UHGV virus genome: UHGV-0211472
Length of the DNA stretch: 64,000 nucleotides
Source: a virus
Direction: 5' to 3' (one strand)
The notes under the pieces are model-generated. The model was not told the DNA's origin. It searched no databases and was given only the letters and a program-made list of their open reading frames with translations. The position numbers and the translations under genes are program-made. This document shows, piece by piece, positions 20,668-38,787 of the stretch (the first letter of the stretch is position 1; every line of letters starts with the position of its first letter).

Positions 20668-20849
20668 TTACGCTCTCCAATTTCTTCGTAATGACACTCA
20701 GTAGTTAAGCAGTCTTTACAGATTGCTGTATAAACCCTGACGTTAGTAAATCGTTTGTTCTTCCCTTTGGTTGGAGAGTCTTTGGCAAGCTCTCTGATAA
20801 CCTTGTTACTTAAATGAAGGTTTGTTCCTTCACATCTAGAGCACTTCAT
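20664..20849 (-). CDS. small zinc-ribbon protein (61 aa)
   Basis: CxxC ... CxxC arrangement (MKCSRCEG ... CKDCLTTEC). Confidence 0.4.
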   Translation of the reverse strand: MKCSRCEGTNLHLSNKVIRELAKDSPTKGKNKRFTNVRVYTAICKDCLTTECHYEEIGERK

Positions 20850-21165
20850 GGTTCATATCTTTATGAATCCTGTAAACAGCTGTCGCCATACAAGCAACAG
20901 CCTCATTGTGTGGGAGGTGCATCCCTGTAGAACCATCCCAATCTTTGAACTCATTGTCAAAGACTCCAGTAGGTTCTGGATACAGAGCTTGCAGCTCAAC
21001 CAAATCATTAGCAACTTGTTGCCATTTATCATCAGACCAGATAGGGTCATCCAACCAGTAATACAAATAGGAATGGATGATCAATTGCCTTCTGTGCCGA
21101 TTAATTATTTCAGCGGGACTTATCTCACTTCCGTTTGAAGTCCTAAATGTATTACTGTCAATCAT
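20836..21165 (-). CDS. hypothetical protein (109 aa)
   Basis: ORF in metabolism block. Confidence 0.45.
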   Translation of the reverse strand: MIDSNTFRTSNGSEISPAEIINRHRRQLIIHSYLYYWLDDPIWSDDKWQQVANDLVELQALYPEPTGVFDNEFKDWDGSTGMHLPHNEAVACMATAVYRIHKDMNHEVL

Positions 21166-21167
21166 GA

Positions 21168-21824
21168 TTACTTATTCCAAGTAGTTGATAAGGCTTTCCA
21201 AGAGATTGGATAGAGCTTCTTCATCTCTTCATCAATAGTTTGTGCAAATAGTCGGACCTCATACTGAGCGTGTTCTGACAGACGTTGACGGCATACTTCT
21301 GACCAGCCATATAAGGAGCCAGTCCAGATCCACTCCGTCGTCATTCCCTGAGGTAGGACAAACCGAGCTTGCTCAGGGGCAATCAGGTCAATCAGTTTTT
21401 CATAATTACTAACAGCTACTTCATATGCCTCGTTAATCAGTGTGAGAGCTTCTGCACGGGCTTCGTCTTGTAATAGGATACCAGAACCTTTGTGAAGGTC
21501 TTCAGGTCGGGAGAAGATCTCTTGTGGAATGAATACATCAACGTCTCCATCTTTATATCGACGGCTCATCTCATTCCAGCTAAACCCCGTCTGATGTTTT
21601 CCTAGCTGGCGAGCAATAGCAATAGGTGCTACACATCGGAAGGTTACTTGTGGGTGCCTAAAAGGAGTCACATGTTTTTCACGAGCGAGGAAGTTGATGA
21701 GACGTTCATCACGTTCATTTAAATCACCTTCACGGGTTACTCCAAAGGATACACGAGCTGCATTTACTACAGTTTTATCCGAGCCTAAAAACTCTACCAG
21801 TTCTGCTTTAAGCTGATCATTCAT
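21168..21824 (-). CDS. ThyX-like (flavin-dependent thymidylate synthase family) protein with divergent active-site motif
   Basis: segment FRCVAPIAIARQLGKHQTGFSWNEMSRRY resembles the ThyX RHR...S..RY signature but reads KHQ with the Ser position shifted. Confidence 0.6.
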   Translation of the reverse strand: MNDQLKAELVEFLGSDKTVVNAARVSFGVTREGDLNERDERLINFLAREKHVTPFRHPQVTFRCVAPIAIARQLGKHQTGFSWNEMSRRYKDGDVDVFIPQEIFSRPEDLHKGSGILLQDEARAEALTLINEAYEVAVSNYEKLIDLIAPEQARFVLPQGMTTEWIWTGSLYGWSEVCRQRLSEHAQYEVRLFAQTIDEEMKKLYPISWKALSTTWNK

Positions 21825-21855
21825 TACTTTTTCTCTCCATCCATGAATTTCCTTA

Positions 21856-22065
21856 TTAATATTCTTTTACATAATAAACCACTAAGGTTCCCATCTCTGA
21901 CAATGTTGATTTATGTAAGCTTACTTTACTATAAATCTTTGGAGACATCTTAAGAGCCTTCTTAAAACGGCGAGCGTCTTTACGAGTAGCAAAGTGCTCT
22001 GTAACAGGTATAGCCGGGTCTTGGTAGAGGTAGTATACCACCGTCCAATATTTTTTCATAATCAA
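21856..22065 (-). CDS. hypothetical protein (69 aa)
   Basis: ORF. Confidence 0.4.
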   Translation of the reverse strand: MIMKKYWTVVYYLYQDPAIPVTEHFATRKDARRFKKALKMSPKIYSKVSLHKSTLSEMGTLVVYYVKEY

Positions 22066-22334
22066 ACACCTAGGGCAGTAGTTAAGAATGCTTTCAGGTT
22101 TGCTTCGGTTTGCATACCAGAGAGGCTGTAATGTGCACCACTGTTACGGTCAGGTACAACGAAAGCAGGGATGCTACGAACTCCGTACTTAACAGCTTGT
22201 TCACGACCATCACCTTCAAGGATGTTAATCTCTTCCACTTCTACATCGAACTCCTTAACAACCTTCTCAAAGATAGGAGCCATTGCTTTACATGGAGCAC
22301 ACTGATCACTATAAAACTTAATCACTTTAGACAT
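22062..22334 (-). CDS. thioredoxin/glutaredoxin-like redox protein
   Basis: CxxC active site YSDQCAPCKAM in a 90-aa thioredoxin-fold-sized protein. Confidence 0.65.
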   Translation of the reverse strand: MSKVIKFYSDQCAPCKAMAPIFEKVVKEFDVEVEEINILEGDGREQAVKYGVRSIPAFVVPDRNSGAHYSLSGMQTEANLKAFLTTALGV

Positions 22335-23540: not shown

Positions 23541-23768
23541 TTAGTAGTGTACTTTTCCACTGAGATAAACACGACCAGAGGAATATTCTCTGGCCTTATG
23601 GATGCTAACGCTCTTAGTTAAGTCCCCATGAAACATAGACTTTTTAAAATCTCGAGCCCGTTGACGAGTAGGTAATGAGGTCATAGTCGTACAACCAGAT
23701 GACCACTTAATCTTCACTAACCAGAACTTTTTCATAATGATATCACACACCTTTAGACGCAACCACAC
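23541..23768 (-). CDS. hypothetical protein (75 aa)
   Basis: ORF. Confidence 0.4.
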   Translation of the reverse strand: MWLRLKVCDIIMKKFWLVKIKWSSGCTTMTSLPTRQRARDFKKSMFHGDLTKSVSIHKAREYSSGRVYLSGKVHY

Positions 23769-24276
23769 CTTCAGAGTTATTATAACGACCCTTCACTGCA
23801 TAAGAATGCTCTCCTGCATGAGAGTGCTCAAACATAACCATCTGACCAACACGCATACCAGAACGGATTCTTAAGCTGTGATGTTTGGTCACATTATGAA
23901 ATTCAAACGTCAATTTACTGTTATTAAACCCCCCATCTGCCCACCCGGCGTGAAGATGGTTCAAACCACAACGAGCCATAGATGAACGAAGAACAAACAA
24001 GCTTGAGATGTTATCTGGAAGGTTAAACTCTTCCATAGAGTGAGCCAAGAAGAACTGACCCGGAGTAATAACCAAACCCTCTTCAGGAATCTTTACTTCC
24101 TTCCACTGAAGATTCTCTTTCGCATCAATATCAACGATGCCATCAGCCTGTTCTTCAACAAGGATAGTATCACCAATACGGATATCCACACTAGCAGCGT
24201 TAACATACTTATGCTCCGCATCCAAATAGCCATTGTCAATTACATCGTGCAGTTCAACACTTCCTAGTAAACTCAT
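23743..24276 (-). CDS. dCTP deaminase / dUTPase-superfamily protein
   Basis: motif ASVDIRIGDTIL resembles the dCTP deaminase (A/N)SxDLRLG signature; 177 aa. Confidence 0.65.
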   Translation of the reverse strand: MSLLGSVELHDVIDNGYLDAEHKYVNAASVDIRIGDTILVEEQADGIVDIDAKENLQWKEVKIPEEGLVITPGQFFLAHSMEEFNLPDNISSLFVLRSSMARCGLNHLHAGWADGGFNNSKLTFEFHNVTKHHSLRIRSGMRVGQMVMFEHSHAGEHSYAVKGRYNNSEGVVASKGV

Positions 24277-24297
24277 TCTTATTCCTTAGTTATTTGT

Positions 24298-25599
24298 TCA
24301 CACTTCAAAAGAGAAACCGCGACCCGATTCATCGGCAAACCGAACTGTACGGGTTTGAGGTTCTAATACTTCAGGGTTGTTGGCAACAAATCTATCAGCG
24401 AGGCTATCTCCTAAATCCTCTATCACATCTTCATCAGTCCACACAGTCCTAACCGGTACATCAAAGTCACCAGCAACAAAACCCTGACCGGAGAATTGAC
24501 GTGCGCTGACAGTAAAGTCATTTGACCGACCACGAGAAGAACCAGTCATCCACCGCTCTGTAGAACCGTTCGTAATACCAAGAGCCTCTTCAAAAGATGT
24601 TCTAGGATCGGGGCTTTCACTTCGTGACTCTTGTGCTCGACGCATTTCAGGGACTGCAAACACCCCTTCCATTGTGTTGTGATGATTAGTCTCATCTTCC
24701 CGACCAAGTAGATCTCCACTTGTATTGGTTGTTAAGTTTGTCAACCCTTCAGACCAATACGCACTAATCTGACTAGATCCATGAACACTTGACATTAACT
24801 GGATTTCTTCATAAGGGATTCCAAAGAATCGACTCATGTCACGATTAACACAATACTGAGCACTTGTTGTATCCTCAACAAGAGCAACCTGACCCCATTC
24901 ATTGATCAGATGACTGACCGGTTGAGGTGTGGGAAGATATCGAGATTGTGCCATATATTGGTATGCAACAGATGGAGCGGAGAATCTTAATACCTGTGAA
25001 TTAGGCCACTTCTTGTGAACATACTTGATTTCACGACCAGAAACAACTACTGGACAGGGGGAGGTCATAGCCAAATATCCATGAGGGGTCATGAATAGAT
25101 TGTCAAGAGTAATCGCACCACGGCACATCATAGGAAAGCTGTCCAACACCTCTTCAATAGAAGTAGGATAGTTAAACATGAATTGGATACGAACCCCACT
25201 CCACTGGAACTCAATAATATCGGTAAATGTTAACAGAGATCCTTCAGCGTAGGCTTCATTCGTAGCTTCAGCAAGAAGGGAAGAGTACTCAATATCTTGA
25301 GACTCGAGCCACTCTTTCACGTTACTTTCAACCTCTCGTCCGAGATCTTGCCACTGGTCATGGTGGATAAAGGTGTTTCGAGTTCTTGGGGCCTGTCCTC
25401 TGACAATAAAGATATCAATGTCATGAGGTGCTCTGTTATTAAGAACAGCATCACGAACAGCCCCACCAGTGATGATGGGACAAATACAGTCTGGAATCAA
25501 GTTGTTGTTAATCAGCTGTTCAATGAAGTGACGACCAACAGCGATATCAGGTTGTTGAGCAACCTTATCTGCAATTCGGTTAATCGGGATAACAATCAT
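24298..25599 (-). CDS. Pol-beta-superfamily nucleotidyltransferase with CCA-adding-enzyme-like head
   Basis: ITGGAVRDAVLNNRAPHDIDIFIV matches the GGxVRD...DxD head-domain motif of class II tRNA nucleotidyltransferases/poly(A) polymerases; preferred start ATG 25599 (one nt after the exonuclease stop); long Ser/Gly/Glu-rich C-terminal region. Confidence 0.6.
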   Translation of the reverse strand: MIVIPINRIADKVAQQPDIAVGRHFIEQLINNNLIPDCICPIITGGAVRDAVLNNRAPHDIDIFIVRGQAPRTRNTFIHHDQWQDLGREVESNVKEWLESQDIEYSSLLAEATNEAYAEGSLLTFTDIIEFQWSGVRIQFMFNYPTSIEEVLDSFPMMCRGAITLDNLFMTPHGYLAMTSPCPVVVSGREIKYVHKKWPNSQVLRFSAPSVAYQYMAQSRYLPTPQPVSHLINEWGQVALVEDTTSAQYCVNRDMSRFFGIPYEEIQLMSSVHGSSQISAYWSEGLTNLTTNTSGDLLGREDETNHHNTMEGVFAVPEMRRAQESRSESPDPRTSFEEALGITNGSTERWMTGSSRGRSNDFTVSARQFSGQGFVAGDFDVPVRTVWTDEDVIEDLGDSLADRFVANNPEVLEPQTRTVRFADESGRGFSFEV

Positions 25600-25600
25600 T

Positions 25601-26158
25601 TTACATTTTCCAATATAATGAAGGTGGGTCGTAAGGGTCAAATCCTGTGAGTTCACACAAGTATTTATAAACCTTAACAGTTAAATTAACGTCCTGTTCA
25701 CAATAAGTAAACATATCCTCAGTGAAAGCATCCCATGCTTCCTCTTGCTCACCGTAATCACCTTTAAGTTCCCCTAAGAACTCACCCCATTGCTTCAAGC
25801 CATGACCTCTTGGGCCATGTCTAGGGTCGCCTTTCGGGTACTCAGGACTGTCACCAATACGGTCAGGTTTAAGATATCGACTAAGACATAAAGTGTCAAA
25901 GACGTTAAAACGATAGTTAATCAGATTGGGATACATCTTCTTCAGAGCACAAAGGTCGAAGTCAATAATATTGTGACCCACGAGCACATCTGCTTCTGTA
26001 AGTTTATGAATCCCATCTTCAATTTGGTGAGGCCGATAGCCCCACCTTTCACCAGTTTCAACATCGAAAACATAAATACACCATACTTTGGTTATATCAT
26101 CGTATAGTGCATTACTCTCAATATCGAATGCAAACACTTTCTTCTTTTTCTTTACCAC
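25601..26158 (-). CDS. DnaQ-like 3'-5' exonuclease (stand-alone proofreading domain of family A polymerase type)
   Basis: Exo I FDIES, Exo II HNIIDFD, Exo III YCEQD motifs; GTG start overlapping the upstream stop. Confidence 0.7.
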
Positions 26159-28221: not shown

Positions 28222-28425
28222 TTAGTAGAACGAACGGATTTCATCCCACACTTGTTCCTGTTCTTTCCTATAAAAAGAAAGTTGGGTCTTGAACATCTCC
28301 ACTGATGATTCAAAGTTTTTAGATTGTGCAGCTTCAACGAAACGTTCATGTCTGTTGATTTTGCACCGTAACATTAAATACTTGGCTTCAAGTCTCCGAA
28401 GAGCTTGTCTTTTCTCAAGATTCAC
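28222..28425 (-). CDS. hypothetical protein (67 aa)
   Basis: ORF; overlapping alternative 28161..28349 considered less likely. Confidence 0.35.
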   Translation of the reverse strand: MNLEKRQALRRLEAKYLMLRCKINRHERFVEAAQSKNFESSVEMFKTQLSFYRKEQEQVWDEIRSFY

Positions 28426-28840
28426 TTTTCAGATACTCTGACCAGTCACCAGATTCAACCAGAACATCTTGTTCTTCGTCAATATGGTAGATATAGCATT
28501 CAACAATTTCACCTGAATCCATCTTGACGTTGACCAGAGACCTGTTGTAGAAGCTATCTTCAGGGCTATGTTTGTTGTAACCTTCCAGTCGGTCATATGG
28601 ACCTTCCAGACCTGCTTTGTCAGTAGCAAACACTTCTACACGAACAGGCTTATTGTTATTGCTGTGTGCGAGAGAGATGCTCGGGAAGTAGGAACCACCG
28701 TAACGGAACAGATCGAAGTTATCTTCAGTCCAACCTTCACCGATTGACTTAGCACCAGCTCGGTCATTAACTAAATAGTTAGCTTGACCACTTCTCAAAG
28801 ACCCATAACATGCGACTAAAACTTTATTTTGTTCTGACAT
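28415..28840 (-). CDS. gamma-glutamyl cyclotransferase-like (AIG2/GGCT family) protein
   Basis: N-terminal VLVACYGSLRSGQ (YGSL motif) and downstream ...GPYDRLEGY... typical of AIG2/GGCT fold. Confidence 0.65.
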   Translation of the reverse strand: MSEQNKVLVACYGSLRSGQANYLVNDRAGAKSIGEGWTEDNFDLFRYGGSYFPSISLAHSNNNKPVRVEVFATDKAGLEGPYDRLEGYNKHSPEDSFYNRSLVNVKMDSGEIVECYIYHIDEEQDVLVESGDWSEYLKSES

Positions 28841-38424: not shown

Positions 38425-38787
38425 CTATTGGTTTTTAATCAACTCAATCGACTTACGGATATAAAGAATATCTCGGAAGTTTCGATAGTTGTTCATAAAT
38501 TGGTGCTTCTGGAAAGTAGCTTCTTCCAGAGCTTTCTTTGCTTCTTCGTAGTTTTTACGGGCAAGATGTACAACCCGCTCTGGTAACACATTTGCACGAC
38601 GGATGATATACTTGTGAGCTTTCATGTTGCTTTGCTCACGAGCAATCTTACTTTTAGCAACTTTGATACCATTTGCAATCCAAGCAAGTTCTTGCTCAAG
38701 CTCATCGTTGGACATACCACCGAGGTTTGATGCAACCTTGTTCAGAGTTTCAATATTAACGTTGCCCTTAATGGGACGTGTATTCAT
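38425..38787 (-). CDS. hypothetical protein (120 aa)
   Basis: ORF. Confidence 0.45.
   Translation of the reverse strand: MNTRPIKGNVNIETLNKVASNLGGMSNDELEQELAWIANGIKVAKSKIAREQSNMKAHKYIIRRANVLPERVVHLARKNYEEAKKALEEATFQKHQFMNNYRNFRDILYIRKSIELIKNQ

Follow-up and report, generated by a model that had tools for sequence, protein, structure and literature searches.

Does a viral gene whose product departs from the textbook signature of flavin-dependent thymidylate synthase (ThyX) still encode a thymidylate synthase, or does the departure mark another product, another substrate or a protein that no longer catalyzes? The question was raised by an earlier note on UHGV virus genome UHGV-0211472, made from the letters of the window, that is, the whole stretch of 64,000 nucleotides analyzed here. 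The note described a ThyX-like protein reading KHQ...MSRRY in place of the conserved Arg-His-Arg and serine pattern, and offered two readings: a divergent ThyX, or a homologue whose product would be another 5-substituted pyrimidine, with a link to a cluster of ligase genes. The gene, its signature and its relevant neighbors are given in Table 1.

Table 1 Features at and around the thyX locus, with positions counted along the window
Feature	Position	Strand	Basis
thyX, predicted flavin-dependent thymidylate synthase, 218 aa	21168..21824	-	Pfam, NCBIfam and PDB matches, AF2 model
Shine-Dalgarno-like GGAGAG, 8 nt 5' of the thyX ATG	21833..21838	-	sequence reading
Variant ThyX signature K76-H-Q-T-G80-F-S82-W-N-E-M-S87-R88-R89-Y90	21555..21599	-	alignment to 1kq4 and 6j61; codons read
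Stand-alone NAD+-ligase domain Ia protein, 109 aa	20836..21165	-	PF22745 (Nlig-Ia) E 1.5e-35; phrog_6466
Protein with a thioredoxin fold, encoded in the minus-strand gene string that includes thyX	22062..22334	-	PF00085 E 4.2e-13
dCTP deaminase	23743..24276	-	PF22769 E 1.5e-33; TIGR02274 106 bits (cut-off 92.8)

The predicted protein matched the Pfam profile PF02511 (Thy1) with an E-value of 5e-44 and 150.8 bits, against a cut-off of 24.8, and the match ran end to end, with residues 8-206 falling on positions 1-190 of the 191 in the profile. It also scored 127.4 bits against the NCBIfam equivalog TIGR02170 (thyX), above the cut-off of 87.9, and its PHROG family is PHROG 85, thymidylate synthase. 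Its best sequence matches in the PDB were 6j61 (E 4e-28), a ThyX of 270 aa that we take to be the Thermus thermophilus enzyme, and the ThyX of T. maritima (E 5e-24); identity to the T. maritima and Thermus crystal-structure sequences was 32-36%. ThyX works as a homotetramer in which three subunits build each active site; a model of the monomer, built by AF2 from a 33-sequence alignment, reached a mean pLDDT of 94.5. Foldseek placed only T. maritima ThyX structures among the top 50 matches of this model (TM-score 0.78-0.83, E ~1e-17), many of them complexes with FAD, dUMP or folate, which assigns it the ThyX fold of a central alpha/beta domain with helical domains. As judged from these profile matches, the product belongs to the ThyX family over its full length, which agrees with the first of the two readings in the note.

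We further compared the gene with its orthologue in phage Bas92 (78% nucleotide and 84% amino acid identity) and obtained a dN/dS of 0.14 at a dS of about 1.0. The stop codon of thyX is followed, after 2 nt, by the ATG of the next gene, so that the stand-alone ligase-domain gene downstream is, by its spacing, a translationally coupled neighbor. A pseudogene or chance open reading frame was ruled out by the profile scores, the ribosome-binding site, the translational coupling and the low dN/dS.

Canonical ThyX proteins carry the signature RHRxxSxxxxSxRY, or RHRX7S in its short form. HMMER alignment to the T. maritima enzyme, together with a reading of the codons, confirmed the KHQ...MSRRY variant: K76, H77 and Q78 lie opposite R78, H79 and R80, and S82-W-N84-E85-M-S87-R88-R89-Y90 lies opposite S83-Y-N85-E86-L-S88-G89-R90-Y91. 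Between these blocks, a one-residue insertion after KHQ sets T79-G80-F81 against I81-A82 of T. maritima. The literal RHRX7S is therefore absent, and the protein reads KHQX8S instead, with His and Ser kept, both arginines replaced and one residue inserted. The serine had been described as shifted, and its spacing is indeed changed; it is not displaced in the fold, however, because the shift stems from the insertion upstream of it.

Active-site alignment to ThyX, the check that the note had suggested, revealed that catalytic and substrate residues were essentially all present and that the two RHR arginines were replaced. We mapped the T. maritima numbering onto alignments of 120 close homologues and 125 distant representatives. 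R74, Q75, E86, S88, R90, R147, R174 and the lid tyrosine Y91 correspond to R72, Q73, E85, S87, R89, R154, R181 and Y90 of the window protein, and each is invariant or nearly invariant among the close and the distant relatives alike. The roles that we assume for the dUMP-binding and dUMP-activating residues come partly from the T. maritima literature. E144 is likewise kept (E151; Glu in 124 of the 125 distant representatives), as is H53, the folate-stacking histidine (H51; His in 121 of the 125).

Four positions are changed. R78 is K76 in the window protein, a swap that retains the positive charge, and the distant representatives have Lys in 78% and Arg in 22% of cases at this position. R80 is replaced by Q78 and varies across the subfamily (Q/K/T/H/V), as do the positions of R165, here Tyr (Y/A/L/F/M), and E58, here Arg (R/A/S/G). 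We take R80, R165 and E58 of T. maritima to be further flavin ligands, and H79 and S30, which are kept as H77 and S26, presumably contribute to flavin binding as well. According to published structural work, the RHR motif forms hydrogen bonds in FAD with the AMP phosphate as well as with the phosphate and ribityl groups of the FMN part, its first arginine reaches the isoalloxazine ring and dUMP too, and the R165 equivalents of M. tuberculosis and H. pylori ThyX are flavin phosphate ligands; the dUMP ligands and the lid tyrosine given there are residues that the window protein retains (PMC6514825). Read against these alignments, the altered signature would affect the grip on the dinucleotide portion of the flavin and not the reaction centre.

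Since the equivalents of R80, R165 and E58 are lost, flavin binding should differ in detail. The invariant R88 and the glycine of the inserted loop would be a plausible compensation for the lost arginines, and R88 and K76 may together offset them. A stronger version of this idea, which refines the reading of the protein as a thymidylate synthase and is compatible with it, holds that the dinucleotide part of FAD is bound in another way: R88 or K76 might assume the phosphate contacts, and the enzyme might have a weaker hold on flavin, work with FMN or rely on an exchangeable reduced flavin. We consider such a re-wired site a tentative proposal, and on balance an unlikely one. The Thermus ThyX (6j61) has a canonical RHR and yet a histidine at the R165 position, so that this position is not universal in ThyX, and the presumed flavin-binding positions H77 and S26 are retained. 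The proposal gains from the spread of residues found across the subfamily at the R80, R165 and E58 positions, from the subfamily-wide invariance of R88 (G89 in T. maritima) and of the inserted G80, and from the role of RHR and the R165-equivalent arginine as ligands of the FAD phosphate and ribityl groups (PMC6514825).

We examined how widely the variant signature occurs. In a collection of 5.8 billion proteins, 117 of the 120 best homologues, spanning 94% down to 55% identity, had KHQ-x-G-x-SWNE-x-SRRY; the carriers included kuraviruses, Salmonella phage SeKF_80, and 53-kb Yersinia and Escherichia phages. An exhaustive HMMER search across 1.84 billion cluster representatives returned 7017 proteins at E<=0.001, of which 356 reached E<=1e-30. 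In nearly all of the 150 best representatives among these 7017 matches (50%-identity clusters), the signature ended in SRRY, and most of the 125 alignable ones combined K/R-H at the RHR position with the conserved glycine, the pattern in distant representatives being [K/R]-[H/S]-x-x-G-x-x-x-[N/S]-E-x-S-R-R-Y. Within the 33-sequence alignment (38-72% identity), G80, E85, S87, R89 and Y90 were invariant and R88 nearly so, while position 78, where RHR has its last arginine, was free to vary (Q, K, T, H or V). A motif private to this phage was thus ruled out, both by the 117 close homologues and by its frequency among the 150 best representatives. One representative, from a 559-kb contig where the neighboring genes resemble those of giant viruses, is not bacterial. 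Some homologues carry intein-like insertions at the signature loop, directly before the conserved serine; inteins usually occupy functionally critical sites.

A sequence search found no KHQ/SRRY member among the PDB structures, and the literature searched held no characterized one; to our knowledge, no ThyX of this type has been studied biochemically or genetically. We therefore looked to the genomic setting of the signature in cells. A degenerate DNA pattern for K-H-x-x-G-x-x-W-N-E-x-S-R-R-Y, run against one genome per species for 185,579 prokaryotic species, gave 45 loci, and every one of these long enough for the gene held a ThyX open reading frame with the motif. The same pattern gave at least 120 loci in IMG/VR, a much smaller collection, indicating that the signature is far more frequent in viral contigs.

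Several of the loci in species genomes are nevertheless chromosomal. One complete Spirochaetia chromosome has genes for citrate synthase, an aldo-keto reductase and an SDR on one flank of thyX, with pyrD, a fusion of the pyrF/pyrE type and pyrB on the opposite flank; in a second spirochaete, the order pyrD-thyX-SDR recurs. In two Chloroflexota/Dehalococcoidia genomes, thyX adjoins a 2-oxoacid dehydrogenase operon, and in a Poribacteria genome it has an enolase-superfamily gene on one side and a gene for an aminotransferase on the other. The Spirochaetia, Chloroflexota and Poribacteria proteins share 42-46% identity with the window ThyX and have the same signature. Other loci were prophage-like, with MT-A70 and GcrA neighbors or a 5'-3' exonuclease neighbor. 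A homology search from the Spirochaete KHQ protein returned only metagenomic proteins; beyond two close relatives, these came from contigs of up to ~79 kb, many of them ~43 kb, sizes typical of phages. A purely viral subfamily was ruled out by the chromosomal, non-prophage loci in these three groups. On this distribution, KHQ/SRRY proteins form a large, virus-rich ThyX subfamily that has been captured by cells in places. Synteny with pyrimidine-biosynthesis genes, as far as gene order can tell, is expected of a working thymidylate synthase.

The same body of evidence bears on whether the protein could be a decayed, non-catalytic relic of ThyX with a structural or regulatory role. The sole point for such a pseudoenzyme is the departure from the textbook RHRX7S. 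It is hard to reconcile with a dN/dS of 0.14, with a variant motif that is invariant over hundreds of sequences, with substrate residues that are intact to the last one, and with the intein-like insertions at the signature loop of some homologues, and we regard it as extremely improbable. The distribution also matters for how ThyX is recognized: a very large, virus-rich part of the family, cellular enzymes included, departs from RHRX7S, so that motif-based filters discard real ThyX sequences. Indeed, one published survey dropped sequences deviating by more than two residues (PMC2826268). In addition, the KHQ/SRRY flavin site differs from that of the enzymes used in the design of ThyX inhibitors.

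A 6-kb stretch around thyX matched 99 phage records at ~90% nucleotide identity, nearly all of them Escherichia phages of the phiEco32 group (Kuravirus/Gordonclarkvirinae). The orthologue in related phages is annotated as "thymidylate synthase thyX" or similar, and it is already known that phiEco32-like phages are annotated as carrying thyX. Bas92 and the window share the gene order PhoH, small proteins, a "DNA ligase" fragment, thymidylate synthase, thioredoxin, a Dps-like DNA-binding protein, dCTP deaminase, nucleotidyltransferase, a polymerase exonuclease subunit and primase/helicase. The genes for primase/helicase, DNA polymerase and dCTP deaminase lie in the same strand block as thyX. Both neighbors named in the earlier note, the dCTP deaminase-like enzyme and the thioredoxin-like protein, were recovered by profile searches (Table 1). 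Among PDB sequences, the deaminase matched 2qxx (E 9e-14), which we take to be the bifunctional dCTP deaminase/dUTPase of M. tuberculosis, ahead of 1xs1 (~1e-7), presumably the monofunctional E. coli dCTP deaminase. If it resembles 2qxx in function as well, it may deliver dUMP directly; otherwise, dUMP may arise via the host dUTPase.

Taken with the retained reaction centre and the predicted fold, this setting suggests that thyX very probably encodes a functional flavin-dependent thymidylate synthase, belonging to the virus-rich variant subfamily and supplying dTMP after the action of the dCTP deaminase. The hallmarks of the subfamily are the change of RHR to [K/R]-H-x, a one-residue loop insertion with an invariant glycine, and an arginine after the serine of the catalytic loop. 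In the proposed route, the phage dCTP deaminase would act upstream, turning dCTP into dUTP or dUMP, and ThyX would then methylate dUMP to dTMP, with methylene-tetrahydrofolate as the carbon donor and reduced flavin as the reductant. We infer that dTMP is the product, and FAD the cofactor, of KHQ-type ThyX. The GC content of the window is 41-44%, against ~51% in E. coli, and a conversion of dCTP to dTMP thus makes sense for the phage: it would shift the host nucleotide pool towards T for the replication of a 42% GC genome in a ~51% GC host.

The second reading of the earlier note is harder to sustain. Stated in full, it takes the protein for a ThyX-derived enzyme that releases another 5-substituted dUMP, for example 5-hydroxymethyl-dUMP, which would arise from capture of the exocyclic-methylene intermediate by water, a proposal that we judge improbable. 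Equally improbable, to our minds, is its extension, whereby this product would feed a thymidine hypermodification, perhaps via the conserved amidoligase, COOH-NH2 ligase and GATase cluster that lies 7-17 kb from thyX, and would account for the resistance of Gordonclarkvirinae to restriction-modification (RM). Were it true, a C5-substituted dUMP would be incorporated into the phage DNA and perhaps decorated further, which would explain that resistance. Several observations give the proposal some appeal. Phage SP-15, whose DNA contains a hypermodified T, has a ThyX-like protein whose corresponding loop carries a large insertion, and the ligase cluster is conserved. Acid-quenched ThyX intermediates yield hydroxymethyl-dUMP, so that the chemistry is accessible (PMC4913046). 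Finally, the BASEL study found Gordonclarkvirinae to be markedly RM-resistant without a known modification pathway (PMC11990801), so that their DNA may be of unusual chemistry.

The residues that changed are, however, ligands of the flavin phosphate and ribityl groups; the residues that bind and activate dUMP are not among them, and Y90, R181, S87 and R89 at the reaction centre are intact. The dUMP, folate-stacking and lid residues are all conserved. The identical signature is also found on cellular chromosomes, in genes that adjoin pyr genes, and in many unrelated phages that have no ligase cluster, such as Chaseviridae-like 53-kb phages, vibriophages and roseophages. For these reasons, we found no specific support for an alternative product or for a tie to the ligase cluster. 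The thymidine hypermodifications described in one published study begin with a dUMP hydroxymethylase of the ThyA family, and that study mentions ThyX only as a methylase (PMC8989533). The window protein has the ThyX fold and not the ThyA fold, the Pfam matches of the neighbors examined included no gene of the 5-hmdU DNA kinase or aGPT-Pplase type, and the literature searched offered neither a link between ThyX homologues and hypermodified bases nor an explanation of the phiEco32 amidoligase cluster.

Such ThyA-family hydroxymethylases, known from SPO1, M6, ViI and phiW-14, would be the functional analogue of the window protein if the alternative product were real. They share with ThyX the addition of one carbon at C5 of dUMP from methylene-tetrahydrofolate (PMC8989533). 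Unlike them, ThyX has an unrelated fold and mechanism, and nothing that we found ties the window protein to their role. For the RM resistance itself, the BASEL study suggests DNA containing dU, citing the dCTP deaminase and the nucleotidyltransferase, and never mentions the thymidylate synthase (PMC11990801). A ThyX that is conserved and shows purifying selection speaks against a dU genome in Gordonclarkvirinae.

ThyX homologues with altered substrates do exist, PolB of polyoxin biosynthesis being a UMP C5-methylase, which raises the prospect that the window protein acts on something other than dUMP, such as a ribonucleotide or a nucleic acid. We hold this to be most unlikely: at 218 aa, the protein has the minimal length of a ThyX without extra loops or domains, the ligands of the dUMP phosphate and base are all kept, and the gene sits among genes of deoxynucleotide metabolism and replication.

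A thymidylate synthase, the reading that we favor, can be set beside known systems. The canonical short flavin-dependent thymidylate synthases are represented by T. maritima ThyX (TM0449; PDB 1KQ4, 1O26 and 4GT9) and 6J61. The window protein shares with them the length class, the fold (TM-score 0.8 to T. maritima) and 32-36% of its residues, and its dUMP-binding and dUMP-activating residues, folate-stacking histidine and lid tyrosine are identical to theirs. It differs from both in its KHQ with an extra residue and an invariant glycine, and in SRRY in place of SGRY, and from T. maritima ThyX in lacking the equivalents of R165 and E58. A phage counterpart is gp48 of mycobacteriophage L5, a ThyX that also lies among nucleotide-metabolism genes, in that case adjoining ribonucleotide reductase, and that is reportedly active. 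In contrast to the window protein, gp48 has a canonical, actinobacterial-type RHR...S.RY signature; it was thus ruled out as a characterized KHQ member and lends no direct experimental support to the KHQ subfamily.

The closest counterparts are the ThyX proteins of phiEco32 and other Gordonclarkvirinae (e.g., Bas92_0048), none of which was found to have been tested experimentally in the literature searched. They occupy the orthologous position and have the KHQ motif. Their amino acid identity to the window protein is only 73-84%, despite flanking DNA that is ~90% identical, which indicates that the thyX allele of the window is a mosaic variant.

The resistance of Gordonclarkvirinae to restriction-modification (RM) systems has been attributed in the BASEL paper to dU-DNA, a proposal grounded in the presence of a dCTP deaminase and a nucleotidyltransferase; the conserved ThyX goes unmentioned there (PMC11990801). 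That these phages encode a ThyX speaks against dU replacing T in their DNA, and so against this account of their RM resistance.

The thyX allele of the window is 78% identical in nucleotides to its L004 counterpart, and its product shares 73-84% of its amino acids with those of other kuraviruses, the nearest protein being metagenomic (94%). Since the surrounding region is ~90% identical to relatives at the nucleotide level, the markedly more divergent allele suggests that thyX has been exchanged as a mosaic within the phage group. Only 2 nt separate the thyX stop from the ATG of the adjoining gene, whose product comprises domain Ia alone, the N-terminal, NAD+-binding domain of NAD-dependent DNA ligases. 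In related phages it is labelled “DNA ligase”, although it lacks the adenylation and OB domains.

The earlier note had raised a different 5-substituted pyrimidine as a possible product of this ThyX. For a non-methyl product, should one come from a ThyX homologue at all, SP15_009 of Bacillus phage SP-15 is a better candidate than the ThyX of the window. In the loop that bears the variant signature in the latter, SP15_009 has K-Y-R-V-G followed by an insertion of ~45 residues and NEASRRY, and a dNK-family kinase gene adjoins its gene. In SP-15 DNA, 5-dihydroxypentyl-uracil replaces T. Four other homologues of 350-640 aa (P0121, P0124, P0212, P0250) appear to carry an intein inserted within the signature loop, directly N-terminal to the conserved Ser/Cys (...VVHN|SWNE..., ...VVHN|CRSE...). 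A ThyX of a related type lies among DUF5760, VWA, AAA and glycosyltransferase-25 genes on a contig that, rather than a bacterial chromosome, looks like giant-virus DNA within the assembly of a eukaryote.

The “ligase cluster” of the earlier note is probably the conserved cluster listed below, in which the GGACT gene is gamma-glutamyl cyclotransferase-like, the amidotransferase is GlmS-like, the ligase genes are of the “phiEco32-like COOH-NH2 ligase” kind and four ORFs have no Pfam match. No functional study of it was found in the literature searched. Its HNH/NUMOD4 gene fits the variable homing-endonuclease insertions described at this locus (PMC11990801).

Coordinates of the features discussed (window unless a locus is named)
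Feature	Position	Strand	Remarks
NAD-dependent DNA ligase domain Ia protein, stand-alone	20836..21165	-	109 aa; PF22745, E 1.5e-35
thyX	21168..21824	-	
thyX counterpart	L004 13431..14087		
Stretch bearing on the dU-DNA proposal	23743..25656	-	
GGACT, HNH/NUMOD4, class-II GATase (glutamine amidotransferase), Amidoligase_2, COOH-NH2 ligase cluster	28415..38787	-	conserved
HNH/NUMOD4 homing-endonuclease gene	28824..29372	-	inserted in replication/metabolism block
SP15_009, ThyX-like	L002 5512..6348	+	Bacillus phage SP-15
ThyX of related RHTVGFARNEVSRRY type	L005 6001..6957	+	contig JACCDX010832861.1, 559 kb
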